Shown: positions 9,623 through 55,870, counted from the first letter of the stretch. The stretch: DNA of 55,971 bases from Oscillospiraceae bacterium (GCA_015063855.1 SVTI01000002.1:1-55971), one strand, 5' to 3'. Numbers and translations are program-made. The notes: a model not told the origin generated them from the sequence alone.

Positions 9623-10327
9623 TTATAAAGCCTGTATTAATTCCTTGACCGAAACATATCTTCTGTTCGGATCAATGTGTGTACATTTAGCAATTATTCT
9701 GCCAACCTTGCCCTTTGCCATTGTCTTGCTCGGATGCTCTCCTGTCAGCATTACATTGAGCAGTACACCAAGGGCATAGATATCGCTTCTTGCATCGGTT
9801 TGTGATATCCCCATCTGCTCGGGAGAGGCATAGCCTATGGTGCCGAGAACCCTTGTATCATTCGTTTTCAGGGGATCCTGCATTCGGGAGGCATTTAGGT
9901 CGATAAGCTTTACAGCGCCGGCGTTGCTGACGATTATATTCTCCGGCTTTATATCACGGTGGACTATACCGAATGAATGTAATGTTTCTGTTGCAAGACA
10001 TACCTCGGTTATGATAGTTTTTGCTCCGTGATAGGTGTATTTTCCGCTATCGAGAACCTCAGCGACGCTTATACCGTCTATATATTCCTCAAGGACTATC
10101 TGTCCGTCATCAAAATGCAGAGAGTCGTAAACCTCTGGCAGATTATTGTGCTTAAAGCTTTTCAAAATATTGTATGCAGGAACGGGAACTGTATTTTTTC
10201 GAAGAATGATGCAGTTTCCGAGCCTTCTGTGAAGAAGCTTATAGACCGTCGAGCCGTTTTTATCCGAAAGAAGGGCAGTAATCATGAACGTATCTGTAAG
10301 AGTGCGTATATAGCTGTCACAGTTCAT
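9623..10327 (-). CDS. minimal soluble Ser/Thr-kinase-like protein
   Basis: HRDIKPENIIV catalytic loop and GYASPEQ. DLN replaces DFG, and there is no TM segment or sensor domain. Start moved to ATG 10327 (MNCDSY), preceded by AAGGGGGAAT. Confidence 0.8.
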   Translation of the reverse strand: MNCDSYIRTLTDTFMITALLSDKNGSTVYKLLHRRLGNCIILRKNTVPVPAYNILKSFKHNNLPEVYDSLHFDDGQIVLEEYIDGISVAEVLDSGKYTYHGAKTIITEVCLATETLHSFGIVHRDIKPENIIVSNAGAVKLIDLNASRMQDPLKTNDTRVLGTIGYASPEQMGISQTDARSDIYALGVLLNVMLTGEHPSKTMAKGKVGRIIAKCTHIDPNRRYVSVKELIQAL

Positions 10328-10436
10328 TATATTCCCCCTTTGATCTGTTGATATATATATTATAAGGAATAATTCCGCGATAGTCAATAAAAGTGTTGAT
10401 TTTTATATGAATATATGATTTAATTTAGTTAGAGAA

Positions 10437-10470
10437 TGAAACTTTTTTCTTCATATTCTGCACTTTAAAG
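10437..10470 (+). promoter_or_regulatory. ECF-type promoter candidate (TGAAAC-N17-GCACTTTA) upstream of the sigma gene
   Basis: TGAAAC at 10437-10442 and GCACTTTA at 10460-10467. A homologous motif lies upstream of the paralogous sigma gene at 21624-21655. Confidence 0.5.
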
Positions 10471-10488
10471 AACAAGGTGGTGAAGCGT

Positions 10489-11025
10489 ATGACGGATAGG
10501 GAAAAAATATTCAATCAGATTTACGATAAGACCTACAGAGGAGCTCTTATATATGTTACTGCTAAATGCTCCCATGTTCAGGACATTGAGGACATAATGC
10601 AGGAGATATATACCGAGCTGTATTCTGTGATAACAAGGAAGGGCGGGGAATATATTGCTTTTCCCGAGGCGTTTGTCCTTAAAATAGCAAAGCGCAAGGT
10701 ATACCTGCATTACACCTTGAAGGAACGCATACGCGGGGTATCTCTTAACAGCGAGGATGTATACGAAAGAGAGATGATCGATTCTATTCCCGATGATTTT
10801 GATATAGAGGATGATATTTGTACCAAGGATATGCTTGACGAGATAGGGCGGTATATCCTCTCCCGTTCTGAGATAACCGCAAAAATATTTATGCTCTATT
10901 ATCTGCTTGATCTTAAGATATCGGAAATTGCCGAGCAATTATCGGTCAGCGAATCTTACGTTAAGAATAAGCTTTACCGTACCATAAAGGAGCTTAAAGC
11001 ACGTTACGGAGGTGACTATAAATGA
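10489..11025 (+). CDS. sigma-70-family (ECF-like) RNA polymerase sigma factor, copy 1
   Basis: About 178 aa. Region 2-like DIEDIMQEIYTELY and region 4 HTH ISEIAEQLSVSESYVKNKLYRTIKELK. Start taken at ATG 10489 (MTDREK), matching the paralog N-terminus. Confidence 0.8.
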   Translation: MTDREKIFNQIYDKTYRGALIYVTAKCSHVQDIEDIMQEIYTELYSVITRKGGEYIAFPEAFVLKIAKRKVYLHYTLKERIRGVSLNSEDVYEREMIDSIPDDFDIEDDICTKDMLDEIGRYILSRSEITAKIFMLYYLLDLKISEIAEQLSVSESYVKNKLYRTIKELKARYGGDYK

Positions 11026-12758
11026 AGGGAAAGGAGATCATAAAAAGAGCCTTGGAGGGCAGTATTCCCGACAAGGAATCGCTTCGTCAGGAGTGTCTGT
11101 CCCAAAGAAAGAGGGCTGTATCGGTTAAGAGAGTGATGATCGCCGCAGCCTGTATCCTTCTGCTCTGTACAACCTTTGTCTTGATACCCCTTTTGAAAAA
11201 AGATAATAATAAAAAAGGTTTTGACGGTAATGAAGATATCATTCTTCAAAGTGAAGAACTTGAGAGCATAAGTGAAGATATCACCCCCGACACGCAGGAC
11301 GAATACTATGACCCGGGTGCTATCGGCGGCGGTGAGTCCTCTATATGTCCCATTCACAGCATTGAATATCACGCTATCCCGGGACTCCTTATAGATTATG
11401 TGGATGAACAGGCTTACGAGGAATGGAAGTCACAGCTCCGTGATGAGGAGGGCTGGTATATAAGGGATGAAAACGGATGCTACCCCGGCTTTAATATAGT
11501 TGAGTTCATCAACTCCTTCAACATTCCCGATGAGCTGATAATCGAGTGCTATCCCGGATATTACAACAGCAGCTCCGCCTATTGGAACCTTGATCTGCTC
11601 CTTTCAAGAGATGCAGAGGCATACGAGATATTTGCAAGAAAAACGTCGCTTACAAAGGAGGAAAAAAGGTTATATGAAGACAGAGAAAGGGATGGATCCT
11701 TCAAGCGCAGAGTTCTGGATCTGCTGAAGGAGAAAACCGACGAAGGATCTGTTGCCTATTATAATAAAATAACCTGTAACGGTACGAGGTATCTCCTTGA
11801 AGAGTTTTCTATCCTTGATATGGTGGAGAATTCCTCGCTTACCAAGGAGGATATCGAGTCGGCCTGCGGTGTTGACCGACGTACAGGTGTTCAGTCTGTC
11901 AACTTTGTATATAGATATACCTATAATATAGATCTTCTTTTTGAGGAGAAGGCGGCGCTATATGCTGAAATCGAAAAGCTTGAAGATATTCCGTACGTAC
12001 CGCGTGCAGCACAGATAGATGAGCTTTTGCATATAGGATATAACGGAGAGCTTGCCGTAAAGGGAGAAGCAATTGAAACCGAATACGGAATTTATATTCC
12101 GGAGGGCTTACTGCCGCAGAGCGATGAGGATCTTCCGCTTGAAAAGGATATGATACTATACAAAGGCAGAATATATTGGTATACTGCGACCGTAACCGAG
12201 AGTGAAGAGCATATTATCGATCATGTGAAAAGCACAATCCCGGTCGGTCATACTCACGGCGATATTGAAAAGGGTAAAACGAATTGGGATACGTACAGAT
12301 ATTATCATTTTGCTTCGTCTTCGGTTGGCGACGTTTATCTTCTTGATGACTATGACTCAAGCTTCAGAATAATGTTCAATAATTATTTCGGAGATCCCAA
12401 TACAATGAAGATCTACGAGGCTAACAAAGGACTTGTTCTGGATAAAGGAAGCGACCTGTACGGTGAAAAGGGTTTGAATCTTCAAAAGAATTCCGTTTCA
12501 CTTTCAGTGGGAGAGAAGCTTGCAGATGATTCCATGAAAGAAAGGTTAATTTTAGAGCTTCAGGAGGGTGATTTTGTTCTTGATAACAGTGATGTGTCTG
12601 TTTATCGAAGTATTTCATTAAAGATAAATCTGGACGATCTCTCAAACGTAACTCTTACACTTTACGAAAACGGGTACGTTGAATATTCCGAGATATCGGG
12701 GTATGGGGTATATCTCGAAATTGATAATACTGAGTTTGTGCAAGATTTTTTTGAATGA
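11022..12758 (+). CDS. anti-sigma-like single-pass membrane protein carrying the shared uncharacterised ectodomain plus an extra C-terminal region of about 230 aa
   Basis: ATGA overlap with the sigma gene. Cytoplasmic tail of about 35 aa and a TM helix (VMIAAACILLLCTTFVLIPLL). The ectodomain has the IGGGESSICPIHSIEYHAIP, GCYP and FNIPDELIIECY motifs shared with the proteins at 19995, 21770 and 24407. Confidence 0.7.
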   Translation: MKGKEIIKRALEGSIPDKESLRQECLSQRKRAVSVKRVMIAAACILLLCTTFVLIPLLKKDNNKKGFDGNEDIILQSEELESISEDITPDTQDEYYDPGAIGGGESSICPIHSIEYHAIPGLLIDYVDEQAYEEWKSQLRDEEGWYIRDENGCYPGFNIVEFINSFNIPDELIIECYPGYYNSSSAYWNLDLLLSRDAEAYEIFARKTSLTKEEKRLYEDRERDGSFKRRVLDLLKEKTDEGSVAYYNKITCNGTRYLLEEFSILDMVENSSLTKEDIESACGVDRRTGVQSVNFVYRYTYNIDLLFEEKAALYAEIEKLEDIPYVPRAAQIDELLHIGYNGELAVKGEAIETEYGIYIPEGLLPQSDEDLPLEKDMILYKGRIYWYTATVTESEEHIIDHVKSTIPVGHTHGDIEKGKTNWDTYRYYHFASSSVGDVYLLDDYDSSFRIMFNNYFGDPNTMKIYEANKGLVLDKGSDLYGEKGLNLQKNSVSLSVGEKLADDSMKERLILELQEGDFVLDNSDVSVYRSISLKINLDDLSNVTLTLYENGYVEYSEISGYGVYLEIDNTEFVQDFFE

Positions 12759-19994: not shown

Positions 19995-21071
19995 TTAATA
20001 AGCTACATGGTCATCGCTCTTTTCTCCTACATGGAGCAGAGCATCTGCCATTTTAACCCTTGATTCATAGTAAGGAATCTCAAGATTATCTATCATCTTT
20101 GTTAGGGTCTCTGTATCTCCAAAGAGAAGATCAAGGTTGTATTCGAAACGCTGAATATCACCGTTTTCGTCCTTCTGGTTTGTCGGATTCAGAACCTCTG
20201 CAAATTCATTTTTAGTGATTGATGTGTTAATGACAATATCAATTATAGATACTTCACACCATGGAATTTTTGTGCCGTTATCTGATATACGGTTATAGTA
20301 TTCTATAGTTTTTGCATCTGTTTTTGTTTTTAGTATATCAAACAATCGCTCTTTCAAGTCGCGTTCATTATAAAGCTTTGTTCTGTATATGTTGTATTCC
20401 GGATTACTTCTTGATTCACGGGATATTTTATCGAAACTTTCTGCATCTCTTGCCAAGAGGCTTTCCATATCCCAGTCGCAGTTGTAGAAATCATTTTGAT
20501 ATGCTTCTATTATTACTTCGTCGGGAATATTAAAGTGTTCAACACATTTTAGAATGTCACCCTCAGGATAACAACCGTTTTTATCGCGGACAAGCGCTGT
20601 AGGGTCTACCCACTTCCTGAATTCCTCCTGACCTATATAATTGGTTATTATGCTCGGAAATGCATGGTAATAGTATGTGTGGATCGGGCACAACACATCC
20701 CCGCCACCAATAGGATCAGGCTCTTCATTGTTTGTAGCCGGTACATCTGTTATTTCTTCTGTGATGTTAGGCTCTGTTATATTGTTTGCGGATTCGACTG
20801 CAGGTGCTTTGTTTTCCGTAACTGAGGCTTCTTCTGTTTCAATTATGCTTATGGGTGTGTGCGGAATTTCGGGATCTTTGTGTTGTGACGGCTTGATTAC
20901 AGAGAATGCCGTTAGCAGAGAAAGGGAAAGCATAGTGATAAGGGTAGCGGCAAGCAGAAGGTTTTTTATTCTGCTTTTTGCGGTATTGTGTGCTATACAT
21001 ACAGAATATATTTTTTCTTTGTCGGGAACAAGAGGAGTCAATGCCGAGGATAAAATTTCGTTATGTGTCAT
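19995..21071 (-). CDS. anti-sigma-like single-pass membrane protein with the shared ectodomain (copy 2)
   Basis: ATGA overlap with the sigma gene at 21068. TM helix LLLAATLITMLSLSLLTAFSVI. Motifs IGGGDVLCPIHTYYYHAFP, GCYP, FNIPDEVIIEAY and ADALLHVGEKSDDHVAY. Confidence 0.7.
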   Translation of the reverse strand: MTHNEILSSALTPLVPDKEKIYSVCIAHNTAKSRIKNLLLAATLITMLSLSLLTAFSVIKPSQHKDPEIPHTPISIIETEEASVTENKAPAVESANNITEPNITEEITDVPATNNEEPDPIGGGDVLCPIHTYYYHAFPSIITNYIGQEEFRKWVDPTALVRDKNGCYPEGDILKCVEHFNIPDEVIIEAYQNDFYNCDWDMESLLARDAESFDKISRESRSNPEYNIYRTKLYNERDLKERLFDILKTKTDAKTIEYYNRISDNGTKIPWCEVSIIDIVINTSITKNEFAEVLNPTNQKDENGDIQRFEYNLDLLFGDTETLTKMIDNLEIPYYESRVKMADALLHVGEKSDDHVAY

Positions 21072-21604
21072 TGTTCTTCACCTCTATAGAGATTTTTGAT
21101 TTCTTTTAACGTGCGGTATAGCTTGTTTTTAACATAGGACTCATTGACGCACAGAAGGAGTGCTATTCTTGGTATGGTGAGATTATATGAATAGTAGAGC
21201 AGGAAAATTTTTTGTACGATCAAGGGCTTAGACAGAACGAAGGCTCGTATGGAATCCAAGGCTTCCTTGGTACATATAGCATCCTCTATTATCAGATCAT
21301 CCGGGATAAAATTGATAATTTCCGCATCATTTTCATTAGAAGTATTCAAGGATATACCCTGTATTTTTTCTTTAAGGGAATAATGCTTGTATATTTTGCG
21401 ATTGCTTATCTTGATAACAAGGCGTTCAGGTGCTTGGACATAATCGATTCCCTTGCGTAATAAAGTTCTGTACAGCTCTGTATAGGTTTCTTGCAATATA
21501 TCTTCGATGTCATGAATGTTGGAGCACTTTGATGTTATATGTATAAGGGTGTTTTTGTAGGTCTTATCATAAATATCATTAAAATAATTTGTAATATCTG
21601 ACAT
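21068..21604 (-). CDS. sigma-70-family (ECF-like) sigma factor, copy 2 (paralog of 10489..11025)
   Basis: N-terminus MSDITNYFNDIYDKTYKN aligns with MTDREKIFNQIYDKTYRG. The region 4 motif ESYVKNKLYRT is shared. Confidence 0.8.
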   Translation of the reverse strand: MSDITNYFNDIYDKTYKNTLIHITSKCSNIHDIEDILQETYTELYRTLLRKGIDYVQAPERLVIKISNRKIYKHYSLKEKIQGISLNTSNENDAEIINFIPDDLIIEDAICTKEALDSIRAFVLSKPLIVQKIFLLYYSYNLTIPRIALLLCVNESYVKNKLYRTLKEIKNLYRGEEQ

Positions 21605-21623
21605 GATCTCACCGCCTTCGTTA

Positions 21624-21655
21624 TATAAAGTGCCCCAAAATATGAAAAAGTTTCA
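21624..21655 (-). promoter_or_regulatory. ECF-type promoter candidate (TGAAAC-N16-GCACTTTA) upstream of sigma copy 2
   Basis: The minus strand reads CTGAAACTTTTTCATATTTTGGGGCACTTTATATAACGAAGGCGGTGAGATCATG. It is collinear with 10437-10491. Confidence 0.5.
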
Positions 21656-21721
21656 GTATAAAATTAAAATTTGTCTATAAGTATATGATATATCCGATAT
21701 CTGCAATAATCAAGTGTTATT

Positions 21722-21756
21722 AAAAAAAAGCACCTGCAGGTGTTATCTGCAGGTGC
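21722..21756 (-). terminator. rho-independent terminator of the lipoprotein gene
   Basis: Perfect GCACCTGCAG / CTGCAGGTGC stem followed on the minus strand by an 8-nt T-run. Confidence 0.8.
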
Positions 21757-21769
21757 TTTGGGATTTCTA

Positions 21770-22708
21770 TTAATAAGCTACATGGTCATTGCTCTTTTCT
21801 CCTACATGGAGCAGAGCATCTGCCATTTTGACCCTTGATTCGTATTCGGGGATGTCGAGGTTATTAATTGTATTTGTCATAACGCTTGCATCTCCGAAGA
21901 GAAGATCAAGGTTGTATTCGAAGTAGGGGGTAACAAAATCTTCTCTGTTGTTAGACGTAGCATCTCCAAGTGCGTTTATAAAGTCGTCTTTGGTTAGCGA
22001 AGTGTTTGATATCATATCATATAACGTTATTTCAGAACAAGGAAAATAAGATCCGTTGTTGGTTATAGTATTATAATAATCAACGGTTTTTTTATCTGTT
22101 TTTGTTTTCATGAAATCAAATAATCGAAATTTTAATGATTGTTCTGATGATAATTTTGCAGAAGAATTGGTGGTAATGGAGTTTCTTGCATATCGTTCAA
22201 ATGCTTCGTGATCTCTTTCAAGCAGTGCCTTTATATCCCAGTCCCGATTATAATAATCATTCTGATATGCTTCGATTATTATTTCGTCGGGAACATCAAA
22301 ATATTCTATACAAAGAAGGATATTTCCGTTTGGCCAACAGCCTTCTTCATTGGTTGTAGAATGAGCTTCATTCGACCATTTACGAAAATGTTCTTCTCCT
22401 ATATAATCTTTGATTTCTTTAGGATAACAGTGGTATCCAAAGTTATGAACTTCACATATGCCCGTACCGCCTATTGGCTTAGGATCATTGTTAGTGTCAG
22501 TAGTACCGGGAGTGGGTATCACTTCTTCGGTAATATCAATTTCCGTTTCTGAATCGGGCAAATCGGTGTCTGCGATGTATGAAGTATCCGAACTTTCGGG
22601 TATGTTTACATATTCGTCAGTTTCTTTTTGTGAGCTTTCAGGCTTTGAACAGGATATAAAAGTCGTTAAAACTGAACAAACCAAAAATATTATCAAAGTA
22701 TTTTTCAT
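21770..22708 (-). CDS. lipoprotein consisting only of the shared ectodomain (copy 3, no sigma partner)
   Basis: Signal peptide with a lipobox (TTFISC). The domain is identical over about 180 aa to the ectodomain of 24407..25633. The AGGAGG RBS lies inside the last codons of the upstream M23 gene. Confidence 0.75.
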   Translation of the reverse strand: MKNTLIIFLVCSVLTTFISCSKPESSQKETDEYVNIPESSDTSYIADTDLPDSETEIDITEEVIPTPGTTDTNNDPKPIGGTGICEVHNFGYHCYPKEIKDYIGEEHFRKWSNEAHSTTNEEGCWPNGNILLCIEYFDVPDEIIIEAYQNDYYNRDWDIKALLERDHEAFERYARNSITTNSSAKLSSEQSLKFRLFDFMKTKTDKKTVDYYNTITNNGSYFPCSEITLYDMISNTSLTKDDFINALGDATSNNREDFVTPYFEYNLDLLFGDASVMTNTINNLDIPEYESRVKMADALLHVGEKSNDHVAY

Positions 22709-22710
22709 AA

Positions 22711-24150
22711 TTAACCTCCTACGGGATTTCCGTTGTAATCATAGTCGTGATATGGGGATTGGTATCTTATAAAAGCCAAAGGATCCATATATTCTCTGCT
22801 TGACAGACCATAATCGTCTGTGTTCGATATCGAGAAATGTAAATGATATCCATAGTTAGCGCCGGTATTTCCGACGGTTCCAATTCGCTGTTCTTGCTGC
22901 ACATCAACACCGACATTCACCAATATTGAATTTAAATGCTGATAAATCATAAAGTAGAATTTATCCTTACTATTGTCTTCAGGATCATCATGATAACACG
23001 TCTCTATTTGTATTAAATTCCCACAGGAGCCATATTCATCCGCCATTTTGACTTTTCCTGATGAAACACTATATACCGAAGTCCCTATTGTTCTTGCGAT
23101 ATCTATACCTTGATGATATTCAAGCTGGCTTGCGGTACCGTACCTCCAACCAAAATTTCGGCATTGATTCAAATAATTACGGGTGTTTGTCCATTCCGTC
23201 ATATTGTTGAATCCTGCAATCGGTAAGCTATACCCACCGCCGGTGCCAAGAGCCATTTCGATCGTATTAATGAAGTTGTTACGAGTAAGTGTAGTATTGG
23301 TCAGGCCTTGTCTGTAATTTATGGCAAAGGCATTAGCGGCAAATGCCAGATTGCTTGATGTAGACAAACAAGCTATACCGTAAGTGTTTGTTTTTATAGG
23401 CTGTTCGGGATATTTATCAGCCGGAGCATTTGTGTTTTCGAAATAAATATACACGGTCGCATTTGCAATAGGCGCTCCGCTTGTTGAACGTACATAGAAC
23501 AATATTTCATTTCCGGGGTACTTGTTTATAGCATACATTTTTGAAAGCATTGTTGCACCGCTTGATCTGTCAATGGTACCTGTCGGATCGAAGCTGCCAT
23601 TAGGTTTACCGGTGATTATTTCGGCCTTTGCCAAGGTCATTACAGCAGTCTGAGACCATGAGGCTATTGAAGACTGATCGGTAAAGCTAATATTGGGCTT
23701 GGTTACCGGTATCGTGGCATTGGTTACGTTTAACGCACGGTATACCAAGGTGGCGAATTCCTGACGCGTTATCACCGTGTCGGGACTGAAGAGACCGTTG
23801 CCGGTTCCGTTGGTTATGTTATTATCATATGCCCATTTAATGCTACCCGAGTAATCGGATGAATAGGGAACGTCGGAAAACGGGGTGTCTGCATATTTCG
23901 GAACATTGATGTCAAGCATTCTTCTTATTCCGTCAACCGCTATATCTCTTCTCAATCCGCCGTAAGGGTAAAAGAGGTTGGATTGAGAGTAAAATGCTCC
24001 GTGGTAATAACAAAAGCAAATACTGTCCTCTGCCCAAAAGTTTTCGGGCAGGTCGGTGAATCTGCTGTCTGCGCTTGAGCTGAAGGTCAATACCGCTGAG
24101 AATAAAGCGGTAAAAACAATAACTGCAAATAATATTTTAACTTTCTTCAT
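22711..24150 (-). CDS. secreted SLH-domain M23 (LytM-type) metallopeptidase
   Basis: Signal peptide. SLH repeats (FTDLPENFWAEDS..., FSDVPYSSDYSGSIKWAYDNNITNGTGNGLFSP...). M23 catalytic motifs HQGIDIA (HxxxD) and GYHLHFS (HxH). Confidence 0.85.
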   Translation of the reverse strand: MKKVKILFAVIVFTALFSAVLTFSSSADSRFTDLPENFWAEDSICFCYYHGAFYSQSNLFYPYGGLRRDIAVDGIRRMLDINVPKYADTPFSDVPYSSDYSGSIKWAYDNNITNGTGNGLFSPDTVITRQEFATLVYRALNVTNATIPVTKPNISFTDQSSIASWSQTAVMTLAKAEIITGKPNGSFDPTGTIDRSSGATMLSKMYAINKYPGNEILFYVRSTSGAPIANATVYIYFENTNAPADKYPEQPIKTNTYGIACLSTSSNLAFAANAFAINYRQGLTNTTLTRNNFINTIEMALGTGGGYSLPIAGFNNMTEWTNTRNYLNQCRNFGWRYGTASQLEYHQGIDIARTIGTSVYSVSSGKVKMADEYGSCGNLIQIETCYHDDPEDNSKDKFYFMIYQHLNSILVNVGVDVQQEQRIGTVGNTGANYGYHLHFSISNTDDYGLSSREYMDPLAFIRYQSPYHDYDYNGNPVGG

Positions 24151-24303
24151 TTTCTTCTCCTTTCGAGGTTGTTAAAGTTAATGGTTCTTAAACTTAACGG
24201 ATGAATATACTTCGGAAGGTTTATTGATTTGAAGCTGAAGCTCAAATCGATATTATATTTTCATAACGATTTCCCCCTTTAAAGAGGTTGAATTATTTAC
24301 CTC

Positions 24304-24345
24304 TTCATTACAGTAATGTCACCCAAAACACAAAATAGCAGGTTT
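24304..24345 (-). promoter_or_regulatory. conserved 43-nt motif upstream of the SLH-M23 gene, shared with the sigma copy 3 upstream region
   Basis: 36 of 43 nt are identical to 26231-26273 in the same orientation. It sits just downstream (minus sense) of terminator 24367-24397. Confidence 0.5.
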
Positions 24346-24366
24346 TATATGAAAAAAAAGTAAAAA

Positions 24367-24397
24367 AATCTCATCCCGATTTTTTTGGGATGAGATT
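24367..24397 (-). terminator. rho-independent terminator of the sigma/anti-sigma copy 3 operon
   Basis: AATCTCATCCC / GGGATGAGATT 11-bp stem followed on the minus strand by TTTTTTTAC. Confidence 0.75.
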
Positions 24398-24406
24398 TTA
24401 ATTTAC

Positions 24407-25633
24407 TTACTCCGCTATATGCAATAAGGCATCTGCCATTTTAACCCTTGATTCATAGTAAGGAATCTCAAGATTATCTATCATCTTTGTTAGGGTCTCT
24501 GTATCTCCAAAGAGAAGATCAAGGTTGTATTCGAAGTAGGGGGTAACAAAATCTTCTCTGTTGTTAGACGTAGCATCTCCAAGTGCGTTTATAAAGTCGT
24601 CTTTGGTTAGCGAAGTGTTTGATATCATATCATATAACGTTATTTCAGAACAAGGAAAATAAGATCCGTTGTTGGTTATAGTATTATAATAATCAACGGT
24701 TTTTTTATCTGTTTTTGTTTTCATGAAATCAAATAATCGAAATTTTAATGATTGTTCTGATGATAATTTTGCAGAAGAATTGGTGGTAATGGAGTTTCTT
24801 GCATATCGTTCAAATGCTTCGTGATCTCTTTCAAGCAGTGCCTTTATATCCCAGTCCCGATTATAATAATCATTCTGATATGCTTCGATTATTATTTCGT
24901 CGGGAACATCAAAATATTCTATACAAAGAAGGATATTTCCGTTTGGCCAACAGCCTTCTTCATTGGTTGTAGAATGAGCTTCATTCGACCATTTACGAAA
25001 ATGTTCTTCTCCTATATAATCTTTGATTTCTTTAGGATAACAGTGGTATCCGAAGTTATGAACCTCACAGATACCGGTTCCGCCTATTGGCTTAGGATCA
25101 TCATTGCTTGTAACCGGTACATCGGTTATTGGTTCTGTAATATACGGTTCTGTTATAATGTTTTCTTCTGTTATAATACTATCTGTTTCGTTATTTAATG
25201 TATTGGAGTCGGTACTTGGAGCGTCGGTATCGGGAGACGGTTCCTTTTTTGTAATATCAATTGGGTCTATCGGAATATCTGTATTTTTATCCGAGGTATT
25301 TAACACCGAAAGGGTAGATACCGTTAATGCACTCATCATTACAAGAACTGCGGCTATAAGTAATACACGTTTAAGGGTAATTGACTTTGATTTTTTATTA
25401 TTTATTATATTTCTTGCATTTTTCTCCGCCTCCTTATCAAGTGTGGTTATGTCTTCACCATTTAATATGAGAAGTGCTTCTACCGCTTCGTCTATAAGCT
25501 CGTAATTTCTGTATTCATAGGGGAGAGACTCTTCTTTACTTAATATCTCTTCTATCGCCTCGGTAAGCTCGGCATCGTTACCTACAGGCTTTTTTTCTTC
25601 ATATTCACTGAGCTTCTGCTCAAGTTCGCTCAT
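24407..25633 (-). CDS. anti-sigma-like single-pass membrane protein with the shared ectodomain (copy 4, mosaic)
   Basis: Acidic cytoplasmic N-terminus of about 90 aa, unrelated to copies 1 and 2. TM helix VLLIAAVLVMMSALTVSTLSVL. The ectodomain is identical to the lipoprotein 21770..22708. The C-terminal tail is identical to 19995..21071. Confidence 0.75.
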   Translation of the reverse strand: MSELEQKLSEYEEKKPVGNDAELTEAIEEILSKEESLPYEYRNYELIDEAVEALLILNGEDITTLDKEAEKNARNIINNKKSKSITLKRVLLIAAVLVMMSALTVSTLSVLNTSDKNTDIPIDPIDITKKEPSPDTDAPSTDSNTLNNETDSIITEENIITEPYITEPITDVPVTSNDDPKPIGGTGICEVHNFGYHCYPKEIKDYIGEEHFRKWSNEAHSTTNEEGCWPNGNILLCIEYFDVPDEIIIEAYQNDYYNRDWDIKALLERDHEAFERYARNSITTNSSAKLSSEQSLKFRLFDFMKTKTDKKTVDYYNTITNNGSYFPCSEITLYDMISNTSLTKDDFINALGDATSNNREDFVTPYFEYNLDLLFGDTETLTKMIDNLEIPYYESRVKMADALLHIAE

Positions 25634-25650: not shown

Positions 25651-26160
25651 TTAATCGTTTATGATACTCCTGACGGCATTTTCGACCTTTGCTAATCTTA
25701 GCCGCAGTGTGGAATAGGGGATATGTTTTATATCCGCTATTTCCTTTAGTGTTTTTTCTTCTATATATCTAAGGACAAAAAGCTCTTTTAGATCTTTCGT
25801 AAGCATATCGGCTATTTCATCCATTCGTTTTTCAATATTCTTTACGAAATACTCATCAACACTACTTGCCTCGGATAATTCACCTCTTTCCTTTGTTTCC
25901 TCAAGGGAAAGGGTCCGGGCGTAATAACGGTTGTGTTTTCGCAGAGAATTTTTTATGCACATATCCGCCACGCGGTACAGATAGGCTCTCAGACTCTCAC
26001 CCCGCTCAACCTTGTCCCATTTTTCGTATAGAATACGGAAAATATCGTTTTGAGTTTCTTCGGTCAATTCCTTGTTACAGCGGAGCTTGAGATAACAGTA
26101 TCTGTACAGCGGCTTTGAATACTGCATGACTATCGCTTCATATTCTTTGATGTCAAACAT
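25651..26160 (-). CDS. ECF-type sigma-70-family sigma factor, copy 3 (a different lineage from copies 1 and 2)
   Basis: Region 2 (YRYCYLKL..., DIFRILYEKW) and region 4 HTH (LKEIADIKHIPYSTLRLRLAKV). AGAGGT RBS. Confidence 0.85.
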   Translation of the reverse strand: MFDIKEYEAIVMQYSKPLYRYCYLKLRCNKELTEETQNDIFRILYEKWDKVERGESLRAYLYRVADMCIKNSLRKHNRYYARTLSLEETKERGELSEASSVDEYFVKNIEKRMDEIADMLTKDLKELFVLRYIEEKTLKEIADIKHIPYSTLRLRLAKVENAVRSIIND

Positions 26161-26230: not shown

Positions 26231-26274
26231 TTCATAACAGTAATGTCGCGGAAAACGTAAAATAGCAGCTTTTT
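26231..26274 (-). promoter_or_regulatory. conserved 43-nt motif upstream of sigma copy 3 (see 24304-24345)
   Basis: TTCATAACAGTAATGTCGCGGAAAACGTAAAATAGCAGCTTTT on plus, about 70 nt upstream of the sigma start codon. Confidence 0.5.
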
Positions 26275-26285
26275 GATAAAAAATA

Positions 26286-26314
26286 TTGAAAGATTTTTTG
26301 AAATATGATAAAAT
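26286..26314 (+). promoter_or_regulatory. sigma-70-type promoter candidate for the SLH gene pair
   Basis: TTGAAA, a 17-nt spacer, then TGaTAAAAT. Confidence 0.5.
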
Positions 26315-26343
26315 TAATCTATAAAAGCTGTTTGGAGGCAAAA

Positions 26344-28467
26344 ATGAAAAGATTTATTAGTGTTATGATATCTATTGTCATGCTTGTTTCGATGATACCC
26401 TTCTCGGTATCTGCCGAGACGGTACTTTCCTATACCGACATAGGTGACGGCAGAGCCAGACTGGATTCGGTAGAGATAGTTGAGGGCGTGGCTAAGTGTG
26501 ATGTGAAGCTTGAGGGACTCACGGTGGTTGAGCTTGGTGAAGAGATATGTGCCTATACCTCTGTCAAGAGTGTTGAGCTTCCCGATACCCTTGAGCGAAT
26601 AGGTTATTCTGCCTTTATAGGCTGTGATTCTCTCGAATCTGTAGAGATCCCCTTGACGGTGAAATTTATCGAGACCTTTGCCTTTACCGAGTGCTACTCT
26701 CTTAAGAGTATAGTCATCCCCGAGACGGTAGAATATCTCGGAGAGTGGGCATTTGATTTCGAAGACATTGAGGTTAAGGTGTACAAGGACAGCTATGCAG
26801 AAAAATACTGTATAGAAAATAACTATCCCTATATCCTTGCAGACGAGGGCTGCTCTCATAAGAATACCGAGAACGTAACTGCAGAATACGCAACCTGTAC
26901 ATATAGCGGCGAGGCTGCCGAGAGATGTACCGATTGCGGTAAGCTGACAGAGAGAACCGAGCTTTCGCCTCTCGGTCATGATCTTGCGGCATGGAGCGTG
27001 GACAAAGACGGCAGATGCCGTGAATGTAAGCGCTGCGGTAACGTTTTTACCGATTTTGAAAGAAGCTATGGTGAGATGCCCTTTACTGATATCAAGGCAG
27101 GAAGCTGGTACTATGATTCTGTAGGCTTTTGCTATGCAAATTCTCTTGTAAACGGAACAACAGCCACTACCTTCGATCCCGATACCAACACCACCAGAGC
27201 AATGGTGGTACAGATCCTTTCAAAGTATGCGGGTGCAGACCTTACAAGCTATAAGGAAAGCGGATTCAAGGACGTTAAGATTTCCTCATGGTACGGTCCC
27301 GCAGTAGCATGGGCGAAGGAAAGCGGAGTTGTAAACGGTAATGACAAGGGTGAATTCATGCCTGATGTTAACGTAAACCGTGAACAGCTTACCGTTATTA
27401 TGAAGAATTTTGCCGATTACATGGGTTATGGCTATCCCGAAAGTGATGTTGACATTACAAAGGCATTTTCTGACGGAAATAAGACCGCATCCTGGGCAAA
27501 AACAGCTATGGAATGGGCAGTTTCTCTTGAGATCGTCAACGGTGTTGGCGGCGGCAAGCTCAACCCCAAGGGTCTTGCGGGAAGGAATCAGATAGTTAAG
27601 ATAATCAAGTATTTTGCCGATATCTTTGAGCTGGAGACAGTTTACGGCTACGACAGAGTGGTTGTATTTATGATAGACGGAGCGGGCGATTTCTTTAAGG
27701 ATGCCAACACCTCCAATATAGACAGGATATTCGATCTCGGCGTTACCTCCAAGGCAAAGGAGCCCGTTAACTGTATGAGCGAGAGAGCCTCTATACTTAC
27801 GGGTACCGATCCTTCGGTTCACTCTCTCTATCACAGAGAGGATGCGGCAAGGGATGTTTATAATGAGCGTAATGCCGTCAAGACCTTCCTCGGTGAGGTC
27901 AAAGAAGCATATCCCGACAAGGAGGTTGCCTGCTTTGCATCGAGCCTCGAGATATCTCAGCTTGTCGAGGAGGAGGGCGGTGTTTATGCGCCTGTTGATG
28001 AAAGCTATGTGGACGACGGTATAACCGAAATGCTTGTAAAGGATGGGGGTTATCTTGACACCAATGATCCATCCTTACTGCTTGTTGAGATGCGTCAGGT
28101 GCTTCAGGGCGGTGTTCACTTCGAAGGCGGTTTTGGAAGCCGCGACTACATGATGCAGCTTTCTCTTACCGACGGTTACATTGGCAGAATATATAATAAG
28201 TATGAAGAATTGGGCAGAAACGAGAATACTCTCTATATCCTCACCACCGATCACGGCGGAGTTGTCGGCGGTACCTCCTACGCGGGTTCAAGCGAGGATG
28301 AGATAAATTCCTTCTTTGCCATAGGCGGTAAGGGCGTAAATAAGAACGCAGATCTTACAGGCTTCTGCAATACCGATGTTTACGGAATAATTCTTGACGT
28401 TTTCGGCATTGACAGACCTTACACTTCGGTATCTGAAAAATACAATGATCTTTTTATCGGTGAATAA
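26344..28467 (+). CDS. secreted multidomain protein: BspA-type leucine-rich repeats, Cys-rich linker, 3 SLH repeats and an alkaline-phosphatase-superfamily (sulfatase/phosphodiesterase-like) domain
   Basis: Start at ATG 26344 (MKRFISVMISIVMLVSMIPFSVSA). LRR_5-like repeats (IGYSAFIGCDSLESVEIP...). SLH motifs (FTDIKAGSWYYDS, FKDVKISSWYGPAV, FSDGNKTASWAKTA). C-terminal FMIDGAGD, CMSERASILTG and TTDHGG. Confidence 0.75.
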   Translation: MKRFISVMISIVMLVSMIPFSVSAETVLSYTDIGDGRARLDSVEIVEGVAKCDVKLEGLTVVELGEEICAYTSVKSVELPDTLERIGYSAFIGCDSLESVEIPLTVKFIETFAFTECYSLKSIVIPETVEYLGEWAFDFEDIEVKVYKDSYAEKYCIENNYPYILADEGCSHKNTENVTAEYATCTYSGEAAERCTDCGKLTERTELSPLGHDLAAWSVDKDGRCRECKRCGNVFTDFERSYGEMPFTDIKAGSWYYDSVGFCYANSLVNGTTATTFDPDTNTTRAMVVQILSKYAGADLTSYKESGFKDVKISSWYGPAVAWAKESGVVNGNDKGEFMPDVNVNREQLTVIMKNFADYMGYGYPESDVDITKAFSDGNKTASWAKTAMEWAVSLEIVNGVGGGKLNPKGLAGRNQIVKIIKYFADIFELETVYGYDRVVVFMIDGAGDFFKDANTSNIDRIFDLGVTSKAKEPVNCMSERASILTGTDPSVHSLYHREDAARDVYNERNAVKTFLGEVKEAYPDKEVACFASSLEISQLVEEEGGVYAPVDESYVDDGITEMLVKDGGYLDTNDPSLLLVEMRQVLQGGVHFEGGFGSRDYMMQLSLTDGYIGRIYNKYEELGRNENTLYILTTDHGGVVGGTSYAGSSEDEINSFFAIGGKGVNKNADLTGFCNTDVYGIILDVFGIDRPYTSVSEKYNDLFIGE

Positions 28468-28469
28468 TA

Positions 28470-31094
28470 ATGAAAAGAGTTTTATCAATACTTTTATGTA
28501 CATTAATGCTTTTACCCTTATCGGTAAATGCGCTTAATATAGGTGAAATACAAAGTCAGACGGCTTATTCAGAACTTGAGCTCTATGAGGGTGTGACCCA
28601 TACCCATATCGCTACAGACTCAACGTCCCGCTATAAGACTCAGAATTTTAATGTTATCGAGTTTGACCCCTCAAACGAAAATCTTTATATCGACGTTACC
28701 GGCGGCGGGGACTATGCCAATAAGCTTTCGAGAACCAGCGATACCGTGGCTAAGTTTGCCAAAGCCAATCCCGACAAGGAGCCTATAGCGGCTATCAACG
28801 GTGACCTCTGGATGGTGGCTTATGCCCACGCGAGAATAGAGGGTAAGGGTACAAATTATAACGGATATACAGATGCGGTGGTTAAGAAGGAGCAGACCTT
28901 ACCTCGCGGTTTCAATATGTATAACGGAGAAATAATAACCTCTGATTATATGCTTCAGGAGACACCCTACGAGGGACAGTTCTGGGCATTCGGTACTACA
29001 GCCGATAATCAGGTGGCTATAGGCTGTCCCAAGCTTGATATCACTCTCGATTCGGTGAAGGCGGACGGACTTAACCGTCTTCCCGCAAACAACGCACTTG
29101 TTGTTTATACCGACAAGGGCTGTCTTAATACCTACGCTCTTGACGATGCGGTGGAGCTTCTTGTAAAAACCGACGGTTACACCGTTAAGCACGGAACCGA
29201 GATTAAGGGTGAGATAATAGGTATCTATGATGAATTTTCCGATTCAGACCCCAAAATGGCAGAGGATCATATCATTCTTTGTGCAAGGGGTACTGCCGTG
29301 GAAAAGGTGAACGGCTATAAGGTAGGTGATACTATATCCCTTAGCTTTGAGGTATACGAGAAATTCGGTCGTGACACGGAGCTTTGGCAAAATATGACCA
29401 ATTGTGTGGGAGGACATACGCCCTTCGTTATCGACGGTGTCAAGAACGAAAGCGGTACCACCACGGGCTATCCTACTACTATTGTCGGTATTAAGAATGA
29501 CGGTAACGTGGTTTTCCTTGTAAATGACGGAAGACAGAGCGGCTTTAGTAACGGTCTTAATTTCAACAGATATTGGGATATAGCGGACGAGCTTGACCTT
29601 AACACCGCCTTTATCCTTGACGGTGGCGGCTCATCCACCATGGTGCTGGCAGATGAGGGTGAATATAAGGTGGTTAACAGCCCCTGCGATACCGGTAATG
29701 CCGAGAGAACTGTTGTAAACTCTGTGATCCTTTCCTCAGGCAAGGCTCATAAGACTGCGAAGAATACACCCGAGATCCCTTCGGAGTATATAGAGTTCGG
29801 TGCAGTACATTATGCGGCAAGCGATGTGAGATGCCTTATTCCCGATGCATCTCAGCTTAATGTCAAAACTACTAAAGAGGGAATAGATTTTACGGTTGAG
29901 GAGCTTTACAGCGATCCCGCCGTTACCTTGAGCTTCGGACTTCCCAACACAAGACTTGATAACCCCGATTCAAGTGTTTCGCATGATTATCCTTACGTGG
30001 ATCTTTCCGAATATAAATATGCTATTATCGACATGAAACTCGATCACAAGGATACAAGTCCGTATATGTTCCAGGCGGTATATGCTACCACGGGTACACA
30101 GACGGGTATAGACGGCAATGCCTTTGTAGGATTCATCAATGCGATAAATGACGGACAGTATCATACATATATTATAGATCTTTCCGCCTTTTCGGGTAAG
30201 CTTAACACCCTTCGTCTTTGCTTTATGTCTGTCAACGGAACAAAGGTCAATGAAGGGGATGTGATATCTGTCCACTCGATCAGACTTGCAAGCAGTGCAA
30301 GCGAGGCAAACACCTTGGCTCAAAGGGGTCATTACAAGACCTATACCATCGATTTCTACGATCAGAACAACAACCATATCGGCTCAAAGCAGGTGGTTGG
30401 CGGCAGAAAATATATGGATTTCCCAAAGGTTGACACCGAGGGATATATAGTTGACGGTTGGTGCTTCGACGACGGTGAGGCGGTTTGTGAGAGCGACGTT
30501 GTAAATCTTTACGAGGATACAGCGATATATCTAAAGGCTAAAACTCCCTTTACTGATGTACCCACGGGAAAATGGTTTACCGATCCTGTCGTTAAAGCGG
30601 CAGGTAAGGGATTTTTTAAGGGTAATGATAAGGGCATGTTCCTTCCCAATGATGCCCTTACCCGTGAGCAGTTCGTTGTGGTGCTTGCAAGAATGGCAGG
30701 GGCAGACCTTTCGGGGTATGAGGGGATATCTCCCTTCAGCGACGTTAAGGCGGGTCAGTGGTATTCTTCTGCCATAGCATGGGCAAGCGCAGAGGGATAC
30801 GTTAAGGGTATCGGTAACGGCAGGTTCGGTCTCGGTGTCAAAATAAGCCGTGAACAGCTGGCACAGCTCTTCTTCAACTATGCAGAGGGTAATGGTATAG
30901 ATACCGATATGAGGATCCAGCTCGGTGTATTCAATGATGCAAATGCGGTATCGGGCTGGGCAAGGGAAGCAGTTTCCTGGGCGGTGGCCTTCGGACTTAT
31001 AAACGGTACGTCCGATACAACTGTATCCCCCCTTATGATCGCTACAAGGAGTCAGGCCGCCAAGATCTGCGTAAGCTTTGACGTATATCTTTGA
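28470..31094 (+). CDS. secreted phosphodiester glycosidase (NAGPA/DUF2233-like) with 3 C-terminal SLH repeats
   Basis: AAINGDLW and ILDGGGSSTMV motifs of the phosphodiester glycosidase family. C-terminal FTDVPTGKWFTDPV, FSDVKAGQWYSSAIAWA and FNDANAVSGWAREAVSWA. Confidence 0.75.
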   Translation: MKRVLSILLCTLMLLPLSVNALNIGEIQSQTAYSELELYEGVTHTHIATDSTSRYKTQNFNVIEFDPSNENLYIDVTGGGDYANKLSRTSDTVAKFAKANPDKEPIAAINGDLWMVAYAHARIEGKGTNYNGYTDAVVKKEQTLPRGFNMYNGEIITSDYMLQETPYEGQFWAFGTTADNQVAIGCPKLDITLDSVKADGLNRLPANNALVVYTDKGCLNTYALDDAVELLVKTDGYTVKHGTEIKGEIIGIYDEFSDSDPKMAEDHIILCARGTAVEKVNGYKVGDTISLSFEVYEKFGRDTELWQNMTNCVGGHTPFVIDGVKNESGTTTGYPTTIVGIKNDGNVVFLVNDGRQSGFSNGLNFNRYWDIADELDLNTAFILDGGGSSTMVLADEGEYKVVNSPCDTGNAERTVVNSVILSSGKAHKTAKNTPEIPSEYIEFGAVHYAASDVRCLIPDASQLNVKTTKEGIDFTVEELYSDPAVTLSFGLPNTRLDNPDSSVSHDYPYVDLSEYKYAIIDMKLDHKDTSPYMFQAVYATTGTQTGIDGNAFVGFINAINDGQYHTYIIDLSAFSGKLNTLRLCFMSVNGTKVNEGDVISVHSIRLASSASEANTLAQRGHYKTYTIDFYDQNNNHIGSKQVVGGRKYMDFPKVDTEGYIVDGWCFDDGEAVCESDVVNLYEDTAIYLKAKTPFTDVPTGKWFTDPVVKAAGKGFFKGNDKGMFLPNDALTREQFVVVLARMAGADLSGYEGISPFSDVKAGQWYSSAIAWASAEGYVKGIGNGRFGLGVKISREQLAQLFFNYAEGNGIDTDMRIQLGVFNDANAVSGWAREAVSWAVAFGLINGTSDTTVSPLMIATRSQAAKICVSFDVYL

Positions 31095-55195: not shown

Positions 55196-55870
55196 GTAAA
55201 ACCACACGTTAGACGTGTGGTTCAAAAAAGGTTAACCGAAGAGGAAGAAATAAAAACTCCTTTGTTGTATAATGAAAGTGCGGTCGGCCAACTGCACATA
55301 AAAAACAACAAAGGAGGTCATTAACGATGAGTATTAATGACATAAATAGTTTATCACATACAAAGTGGAATTGCAAGTACCATATAGTATTTGCGCCAAA
55401 GTACAGAAGAAAGATATTCTATGGAGAAAAACGAACAGAAATAGGAAAGATATTAAGACAACTATGTGAATGGAAGGGAGTAAAGATAGTAGAGGCAGAA
55501 GTATGTCCGGATCACATACATATGTTGTTGGAAATACCACCAAAGCTGAGCGTATCAAGTTTTATGGGATATCTGAAAGGGAAAAGCAGTACGATGTTGT
55601 ACGAGCAATTCGGCGAGTTAAAATATAAGTATCGAAGTAGAGAATTTTGGTGTAAAGGATATTACGTAGATACAGTGGGAAAGAATACTAGCCGAATTGC
55701 GGAATATATAGCAAATCAATTAAAAGAAGACCAACTAGGCGAACAGATAACGATAAGCGAAGTCGGCCCGTTTACGGGTAGCAGGTAACAGTCCTACGCA
55801 GTTGGCAGATCGTATAAGTGCGTTTACGCACTTGCGAAGAACAGAGGGCTATGCCCGCATATGAAAAACC
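55196..55870 (+). mobile_element. IS200-type insertion sequence (IS200/IS605 family, tnpA only); boundaries approximate
   Basis: Y1 transposase gene flanked by subterminal hairpins (AACCACACG/CGTGTGGTT at 55199-55222 and AAGTGCG/CGCACTT at 55826-55843). No tnpB is present. Confidence 0.6.
55327..55788 (+). CDS. tnpA: IS200/IS605-family Y1 (HUH) transposase TnpA
   Basis: KYHIVFAPKYRRKIF, the HUH motif DHIHMLLEIPPK and a catalytic-Tyr region near the C-terminus. 153 aa. Confidence 0.9.
   Translation: MSINDINSLSHTKWNCKYHIVFAPKYRRKIFYGEKRTEIGKILRQLCEWKGVKIVEAEVCPDHIHMLLEIPPKLSVSSFMGYLKGKSSTMLYEQFGELKYKYRSREFWCKGYYVDTVGKNTSRIAEYIANQLKEDQLGEQITISEVGPFTGSR

Follow-up and report, generated by a model that had tools for sequence, protein, structure and literature searches.

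Mosaic structure of three neighbouring ectodomain genes in an Oscillospiraceae bacterium

How do neighbouring genes that otherwise differ at nearly half of their positions come to carry blocks of DNA that agree to the last nucleotide? The question is raised by three genes, here called A, B and C, in a 55,971-nt stretch from an Oscillospiraceae bacterium (GCA_015063855.1 SVTI01000002.1:1-55971); this whole stretch is referred to as the window, and coordinates are counted from its first letter. Each of the three encoded proteins ends in one common helical extracytoplasmic domain of ~230 aa, and all three copies lie in direct orientation on the minus strand. Gene C, which follows a sigma factor gene, is a mosaic: its N-terminus is its own, its core is identical to that of the lipoprotein gene B, and its tail is shared with gene A. 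This structure is significant by permutation and recurs in independent assemblies, and it very probably reflects gene conversion among the three paralogs.

Shared segments in genes A, B and C

The locus comprises three minus-strand transcription units, sigC-C, M23-B and sigA-A, with the following genes.

25651-26160, minus strand: sigC, an extracytoplasmic function (ECF)-type sigma factor of 169 aa; Sigma70_r2 and r4_2 above the Pfam cut-offs, TIGR02937 at 53.7 bits against a cut-off of 42.9
24407-25633, minus strand: gene C, an open reading frame (ORF) just downstream of sigC encoding a 408-aa single-pass membrane protein, a putative anti-sigma factor; likely recipient in the mosaic
22711-24150, minus strand: SLH-anchored M23 peptidoglycan peptidase, 479 aa (Pfam SLH 6e-25, Peptidase_M23 2.5e-21), between the two long repeats
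21770-22708, minus strand: gene B, an ORF encoding a 312-aa lipoprotein paralog, starting 2 nt past the M23 stop; probable donor of the core
21068-21604, minus strand: sigA, an ECF-like sigma factor of 178 aa with a 4-nt overlap with gene A; weak Sigma70_r4_2 and ECF matches below cut-off
19995-21071, minus strand: gene A, encoding a 358-aa putative anti-sigma paralog with tail blocks common to both C and B

The segments that these genes share are listed below.

21897-22438, minus strand: repeat R in gene B, 542 bp identical to 24510-25051
24510-25051, minus strand: repeat R in gene C, the putative B-to-C conversion tract
25052-25103, minus strand: 5' decay zone of B/C similarity (partner 22439-22490)
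25099-25175, minus strand: patch in the C linker, immediately 5' of the apparently B-derived core; identity to A 20723-20791 is 79%
24429-24535, minus strand: 107-bp block in C, identical to A 20041-20147 (107/107)
20041-20147, minus strand: 107-bp block in A, identical to C 24429-24535
21770-21841, minus strand: 72-bp 3' end of B, matching A 19995-20066
19995-20066, minus strand: last 72 bp of A, which hold the VGEKSDDHVAY extension and the stop; 2 mismatches to B 21770-21841

When 21891-22490 is aligned with 24504-25103, at a constant offset of 2613, only nine mismatches are found over 600 nt, and R itself is identical at 542 of 542 positions. Within R, there are zero differences at any codon position, every synonymous site across 180 codons included; thus, selection on the protein cannot explain the identity. 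Toward the 5' ends of the genes the agreement decays. Positions 22439-22488 carry six mismatches, all of them third-position and synonymous over the identical peptide DPKPIGGTGICEVHNF, and B/C homology is lost beyond ~22490. This synonymous-only zone suggests an older tract edge.

On the other side of R, the partner changes. The first 26 nt of the 107-bp block in C (24510-24535) are identical in A, B and C and code for FEYNLDLLF; both the end of the B/C tract and the start of the 107-bp A/C tract fall inside this block, which marks it as the switch point. Further downstream, the last 72 nt of A and B agree at 70 positions, with mismatches at 20015 and 20055, and include the extension VGEKS(D/N)DHVAY, which is missing from gene C with its ending ...ADALLHIAE. 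In the linker patch, C agrees with A at 54 of 68 positions (79%), where the background is ~50%, and the indels of the two coincide; this appears to be a fourth, older A-like patch. A-C identity varies by part, being 79% for the linker, 59% for the core and 100% for the tail, and identity outside the tracts is 50-60% among the three genes. The G+C content is 37.6% for the locus, 33.4% for the repeat and 42.5% for the window.

A GENECONV-style test on the 420 polymorphic sites of the codon alignment, with 10,000 permutations, placed the longest concordant runs far outside the permuted range: 223 sites for B-C (permutation maximum 30), 24 for A-C (8) and 9 for A-B (6), each with P <= 1e-4. Segment trees are likewise incongruent, with the core of C grouping with B in a clade of lipoproteins, its tail with A, and its N-terminus with P0003, the positional ortholog of C in a related species. 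A fourth paralog in the window, gene D, takes no part in the mosaic.

The original prediction had described the three shared segments, all of which were recovered where it placed them, together with the 5' decay and the absence from C of the VGEKS(D/N)DHVAY extension, both borne out by the alignments. The breakpoint analysis it had proposed for the paralogs gave significant runs for all three pairs. Its description of C as a chimera with its own N-terminus, a lipoprotein-type core, an A-type tail and its own stop region agrees with the alignments and segment trees, except that the stop region is not unique: the ending ...LLHIAE* resembles the ...LLHVEE* of P0003, and is thus a native C-type end and nothing new.

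Relatives, direction of transfer and proposed events

The ancestral state can be approached through L024, a Logan contig from a related species whose M23 and sigC proteins are 68% and 56% identical to those of the window. Its gene order is the same, namely a sigma factor, the C-type protein P0003 (N-terminus 49% identical to that of gene C), M23 and a lipoprotein cut by the contig end, the 288 residues of which are the start of the full-length P0009. The two ectodomain genes share no long identical block there; they are divergent at most positions, with only the last ~30 nt matching well, and the cores of P0003 and P0009 are 38% identical. Because the paralogs of L024 are divergent, the ancestral state is two divergent paralogs, and the identity in the window very probably represents recent, lineage-specific conversion. 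Related genomes sharing one fixed arrangement with proportionate divergence had been named as the outcome that would speak against recent recombination, and L024 shows the opposite. The very recent date originally proposed is supported by this contig, with its divergent paralogs in the same gene order, and by the absence of any difference over 542 bp and 107 bp.

The direction of the core transfer can be read from the core tree, in which B and C lie inside a clade of lipoprotein orthologs (P0005-P0008, 52-59% identity), compared with 45% for P0003. Since the core of C belongs to the lipoprotein clade and interrupts an otherwise A-like context, B is probably the donor and C the recipient. For the A/B exchange, no ortholog carries the VGEKS(D/N)DHVAY extension, and its direction therefore cannot be set.

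A comparable event is visible in an Oscillospiraceae metagenome-assembled genome, SIG630 (L023/L027). Here, M23 is followed by two tandem lipoprotein paralogs, at L023 8001-8891 and 9020-9883, one with a B-type core (P0005) and one with an A-type core (287 aa). The two are divergent over most of their length; their last ~160 nt differ by only four mismatches, in a tract that runs ~20 nt beyond the stop and has its boundary at an FDYDLDLLF motif, the same site as in the window. Tail homogenisation within a genome thus occurs in a second lineage and is not a one-off. A scan of genome contigs with the family alignment returned only L027, of the same species as L023, and L028, and neither the window's genome nor a close sister.

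Taken together, these observations would be explained by ectopic, non-reciprocal homologous recombination of the RecA type among neighbouring paralogs, in at least three or four conversion events. A very recent transfer would have brought into C a stretch of 542 bp or more from the core of the lipoprotein gene B. An equally very recent A/C exchange may have involved the 107 bp of tail, and a slightly older A/B exchange the last 72 bp, with the VGEKS(D/N)DHVAY extension included. The linker patch of C, with its 79% identity to A, and the decay zone with its purely synonymous changes would date from older events. In each case, tracts would begin and end in the most conserved nucleotide blocks of the family, chiefly the 26-nt FEYNLDLLF block. 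As a result, the core of C is now identical in amino acids to that of the lipoprotein co-transcribed with the M23 hydrolase, and two 542-bp direct repeats flank the M23 gene.

Public assemblies and competing explanations

Look-ups of exact proteins led to many public contigs from this organism, whose identity to the window is 99.8% or higher. They take several paths through the repeat.

B N-terminus, R, B tail, as in the window: six contigs (L001-L006), the path of L002 being read from a full-length BLAST match, as the pattern check did not list it
B N-terminus, R, C tail, 5' part of M23 (P0015, 304 aa): three contigs (L007-L009), with the 3' part of M23 preceding the B N-terminus; duplication or circle path
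B N-terminus, R, A tail, then the genes downstream of A (P0016): two contigs (L010, L011)
C N-terminus, R, B tail, sigA, A: one contig (L030), the predicted 2613-bp deletion

A further contig, L012, is gene A carrying the B-type Asn. These paths bring in the first alternative, in which recombination at the repeats is standing and frequent, and actively yields deletion (C N-terminus to B tail), duplication or circle (B N-terminus to C tail) and B::A fusion alleles, amounting to phase-variation-like heterogeneity. Every predicted join is indeed present among the public contigs (L030; L007-L009; L010/L011; L012), and the one in L010/L011 requires a walk across the 107-bp block, which is shorter than the final k-mer length (k) of 141. 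However, each variant contig is otherwise identical to the window, without single-nucleotide polymorphisms (SNPs) that would mark a lineage. The variants are also short (1.4-3.7 kb) and come from fragmented assemblies, most contigs of the organism being 1-4 kb, whereas the arrangement of the window is the one seen in the best assembly, that of sample 3300031555 with its contigs of 19 and 24.6 kb. Moreover, multi-k assemblers hand low-k contigs to higher k, so that joins across repeats of 107-542 bp are expected artefacts. Four tail-swap proteins were constructed, namely C with the tail of B or of A, and A with the tail of C or of B; none was found in the protein collection as an exact full-length sequence, a look-up that is weak for the two C-type constructs, as full-length C-type genes almost never assemble. 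Scans of metagenome contigs with a 594-nt IUPAC pattern across R with either flank, which matches the window and 10 fetched loci locally, and with a 40-mer inside R gave no match, an uninformative result in a collection without these contigs. Given that the variants have no SNPs of their own and that assemblers can make such joins at exact repeats, the joins were treated as non-evidence: they are compatible with real recombinants, provide no evidence for them and are inseparable from assembler path choices. Standing recombination of this kind is therefore regarded as improbable.

L007 was also considered as a circular excision product, on account of its length of 2624 nt (2613 + 11). This candidate was rejected, as the 11-nt overlap fits no assembler k; a single coverage gap in the single-copy M23 gene, bounding both contig ends, accounts for it.

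A second alternative is a recent duplication or domain insertion, in which C was made by copying part of B beside a sigma gene and no homologous sequence was replaced. Either process would leave the same picture of two genes with one identical segment, and the family does shuffle domains: the ectodomain occurs in lipoproteins, in BlaR1-type proteins and in anti-sigma factors belonging to two unrelated ECF groups. Against this, L024 has a C-type anti-sigma gene with an ectodomain in the same place upstream of M23, which predates the species split. Furthermore, C keeps its C-type stop region and has A-like, rather than B-like, sequence on both sides of R. A duplication is thus very unlikely.

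The last alternative is an assembly artefact, with the identical block misplaced in C or B by repeat collapse, mis-joining or gap filling while one of the genes truly has a divergent core. Grounds for suspicion exist: the window is a 56-kb contig whose sequencing technology is unstated, a 542-bp exact repeat exceeds short-read length, and public short-read assemblies take inconsistent paths through it. Nevertheless, ten contigs from ten other samples carry sigC, run into C and stop within R or just before it (depths inside R of 13, 72, 99, 102, 103, 123, 124, 124 and 141 nt), joining the C-specific N-terminus to the first 13-141 nt of R at 100% identity to the window; L018, a k141 MEGAHIT contig, stops exactly 141 nt into R. 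From the 3' side, L001 and L003 begin 127 nt inside R, join these last 127 nt to the C-specific tail, and then span the C tail, M23, the entire gene B, sigA and A, again at 100% identity. Such stops are what is usually seen when a real repeat exceeds k and occurs in two contexts; a native C core would let contigs run on instead of stopping at ~k-1 nt. In addition, a family search of 5.8 billion protein clusters returned 12 members, the nearest C-type one 45% identical, and no alternative C-like core, even a fragmentary one. Finally, L013 and L001, from the same sample, jointly reproduce the window order X-R-Y-R-Z, the sole linear order that uses each unique segment once. The collapse artefact that the original prediction wished to see excluded is largely removed, as independent contigs from 10 or more other samples attest both edges of R in the C context, and an artefact is scarcely credible. 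The locus calls for caution in assembly and annotation, because every short-read assembly of it is either broken or scrambled at the 542-bp exact repeat.

Several points weigh against gene conversion from B into C as described here. The middle ~274 nt of R in the C context are attested by the window assembly alone, and the evidence for the repeat consists of assembled contigs rather than raw or long reads. The public contigs, at their level of identity, represent one near-clonal population and not independent strains. As for direction, P0009, the M23-adjacent lipoprotein of L024, falls outside the P0005-P0008 clade, and the core of B is equally identical to P0003 and P0009, at 45% each.

The ectodomain, candidate regulation and known systems

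The remaining features of the locus and of the fourth paralog are as follows.

10477-11025, plus strand: sigD, passing the TIGR02937 and Pfam r2/r4 cut-offs
11022-12758, plus strand: gene D, following sigD; a fourth, distant paralog of 578 aa that has an additional C-terminal domain
21727-21759, minus strand: terminator-like hairpin with T-run after B, separating the M23-B and sigA-A units
24365-24399, strand not assigned: hairpin with T-runs after C, separating the sigC-C and M23-B units
24310-24341, minus strand: 32-nt motif CTGCTATTTT-N11-GACATTACTGT upstream of the M23-B operon
26237-26268, minus strand: the 32-nt motif again, here upstream of sigC
21626-21654, minus strand: motif GAAACTTTTT-N11-GCACTTTA upstream of sigA, shared with sigD at 10438-10467 (plus strand)

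Another hairpin similar to these is visible in the printed sequence after gene A, although the hairpin scan did not list it. The four paralogs A, B, C and D are complete ORFs in operons of their own with terminators between them, an arrangement that is not one of silent cassettes. Gene D is 33-38% identical in protein sequence to the others. The sigma factors fall into two groups: sigA scores 33.3 bits with TIGR02937, below the cut-off of 42.9, yet is 55% identical to sigD, and sigC is unrelated to either by BLAST. The genes of sigD/D overlap by 4 nt, as do those of sigA/A, and a 17-nt gap lies between sigC and C. The putative anti-sigma proteins have one hydrophobic segment apiece, as judged by inspection of their translations. 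The label given to gene C derives from gene context and is putative: the protein has no Pfam or NCBIfam match, its N-terminal 110 aa used alone as a query found no homologs, and the AlphaFold2 (AF2) model of residues 1-110 is helical but of low confidence (predicted local distance difference test, pLDDT, of 59), too poor for a fold search. The signal peptide of gene B (...TTFISC) ends, by inspection, in a lipobox cysteine (MKNTLIIFLVCSVLTTFISC, followed by S); in its orthologs, the corresponding column reads LISC, MISC, TVSC and LVGC.

The shared ectodomain itself matches no Pfam or NCBIfam family. In the B protein it is modelled by AF2 with a pLDDT of 87.5 and a predicted template modelling score of 0.82 as mostly helical with a small C-terminal strand element, and a Foldseek search of this model against the PDB gave nothing with E below 2. 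The lone PDB sequence match, to a beta-lactamase, was rejected as a spurious, low-complexity N-terminal match. A profile search of 1.84 billion representatives found 329 clusters at E <= 1e-3, mostly of lipoprotein size (260-330 aa), and the family thus comprises ~330 clusters at 50% identity. In the distant members P0087 (1096 aa) and P0128 (2370 aa), the ectodomain stands behind a BlaR1-type Peptidase_M56 transducer, and P0128 also carries an IseA DL-endopeptidase-inhibitor domain. These fusions, together with the translationally coupled M23-lipoprotein pair conserved in the window, L023 and L024, suggest a portable module for sensing and regulation linked to the control of cell-wall hydrolases. 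Gene D and its relative P0012 bear, after the ectodomain, an extra C-terminal domain of ~230 aa that has no Pfam match. Directly upstream of sigD, on the opposite strand, a 254-aa ORF (9623-10387, minus strand) contains the protein-kinase motifs HRDIKPEN, DLN and GT.GY.SPE and has no membrane or sensor part.

The 32-nt motif has exactly two matches in the window and none in shuffled sequences, and it is conserved upstream of M23 in L024 (about 1625-1670). It is probably a SigC-dependent promoter or operator; membership of M23-B in the SigC regulon would be the simplest reading of its two positions. The second motif, GAAACTTTTT-N11-12-GCACTTTA, likewise has two matches where none is expected and contains an ECF-like GAAAC -35 element, suggesting autoregulated promoters for the sigA/sigD group. 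The M23 leader (24151-24406) contains another element, GGGGGAA(A/C)(T/C)CGTTATGAAAATATAA, at about 24262-24286 on the minus strand; it is conserved upstream of M23 in the window, L024 and L023 and could represent either a leader element or a -10 region of the housekeeping type. An Rfam scan found nothing in the locus, and the conserved leader is hence not a known riboswitch.

If M23-B belongs to the SigC regulon, the core through which C senses would be shared, without any difference, with a product of that regulon. One could imagine C and B as a sensor/decoy or sensor/co-receptor pair for the SLH-M23 hydrolase or its products, with recurrent conversion keeping the sensor matched to the lipoprotein of the regulon; this idea is speculative and rather doubtful as it stands. 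Were it true, concerted evolution would keep a feedback loop specific, and the ectodomain would be a sensing module, not described before, for the control of cell-wall hydrolases. In any case, the identical core of C and B and the shared cis motif offer a concrete, testable circuit for an unannotated domain family.

Beyond sigC, at 26305-31094 and further (plus strand), and also in L013, lies a run of large SLH surface proteins (LRR_5+SLH, NAGPA+SLH and Pkinase+SLH), which places the mosaic locus in a cell-envelope gene neighbourhood. Elsewhere in the window, between two plus-strand ORFs, 55200-55314 (plus strand) matches the Rfam family STnc490, a Salmonella Hfq-binding small RNA, at 57.8 bits against a gathering score of 56. 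The genome being Firmicute-like, this match is unexpected and could well be false.

Control of cell-wall hydrolases by a sigma/anti-sigma pair has a precedent in Firmicutes in sigma-I/RsgI of Bacillus subtilis (PMC9732909). In both systems, cell-wall hydrolase genes adjoin the gene of a membrane-bound anti-sigma factor, putative in the present case, that senses through an extracytoplasmic part; here, it is a shared cis motif that links sigC to the M23-B operon, and regulation would follow from this motif. No sequence or Pfam relationship to RsgI exists, and in RsgI a disordered region is the proposed sensor, in contrast to the folded helical domain of an undescribed family found here.

Intragenomic gene conversion and concerted evolution of bacterial paralogs are documented for tufA/tufB in Salmonella (PMC5485169) and for RF1/RF2 (PMC4530459). 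The present locus resembles both in the non-reciprocal transfer, as we read it, between dispersed or neighbouring paralogs of one genome, in tracts of tens to hundreds of bp bounded by homology, and in that paralogs within the genome are more alike than orthologs. Unlike tufA/tufB, the partners here have a far lower identity outside the tracts (only ~50-60%), and short conserved blocks, for instance the 26 nt encoding FEYNLDLLF, are therefore needed for initiation. Unlike either pair, the genes differ in architecture, two encoding putative anti-sigma factors of unrelated ECF groups and one a lipoprotein, and they form a three-gene mosaic rather than a simple pair. This is a familiar mechanism in an unusually clean form, well bounded and with several partners, in an uncultured Oscillospiraceae-like bacterium from the rumen or gut. 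It would mean that a signal transducer can have its sensor domain overwritten by a paralog that is built differently.

Gene conversion also drives diversity in surface and antigen gene families, as in pilE/pilS, vlsE and tprK. The PE/PPE family of Mycobacterium tuberculosis is a further case (PMC13061034). Like these systems, the locus shows segmental mosaicism, through paralog recombination, in genes for extracytoplasmic proteins. Unlike those of the pilE/pilS type, it contains no silent cassettes, all four copies being complete with starts, stops and an operon context of their own, and the outcome is homogenisation rather than diversification.

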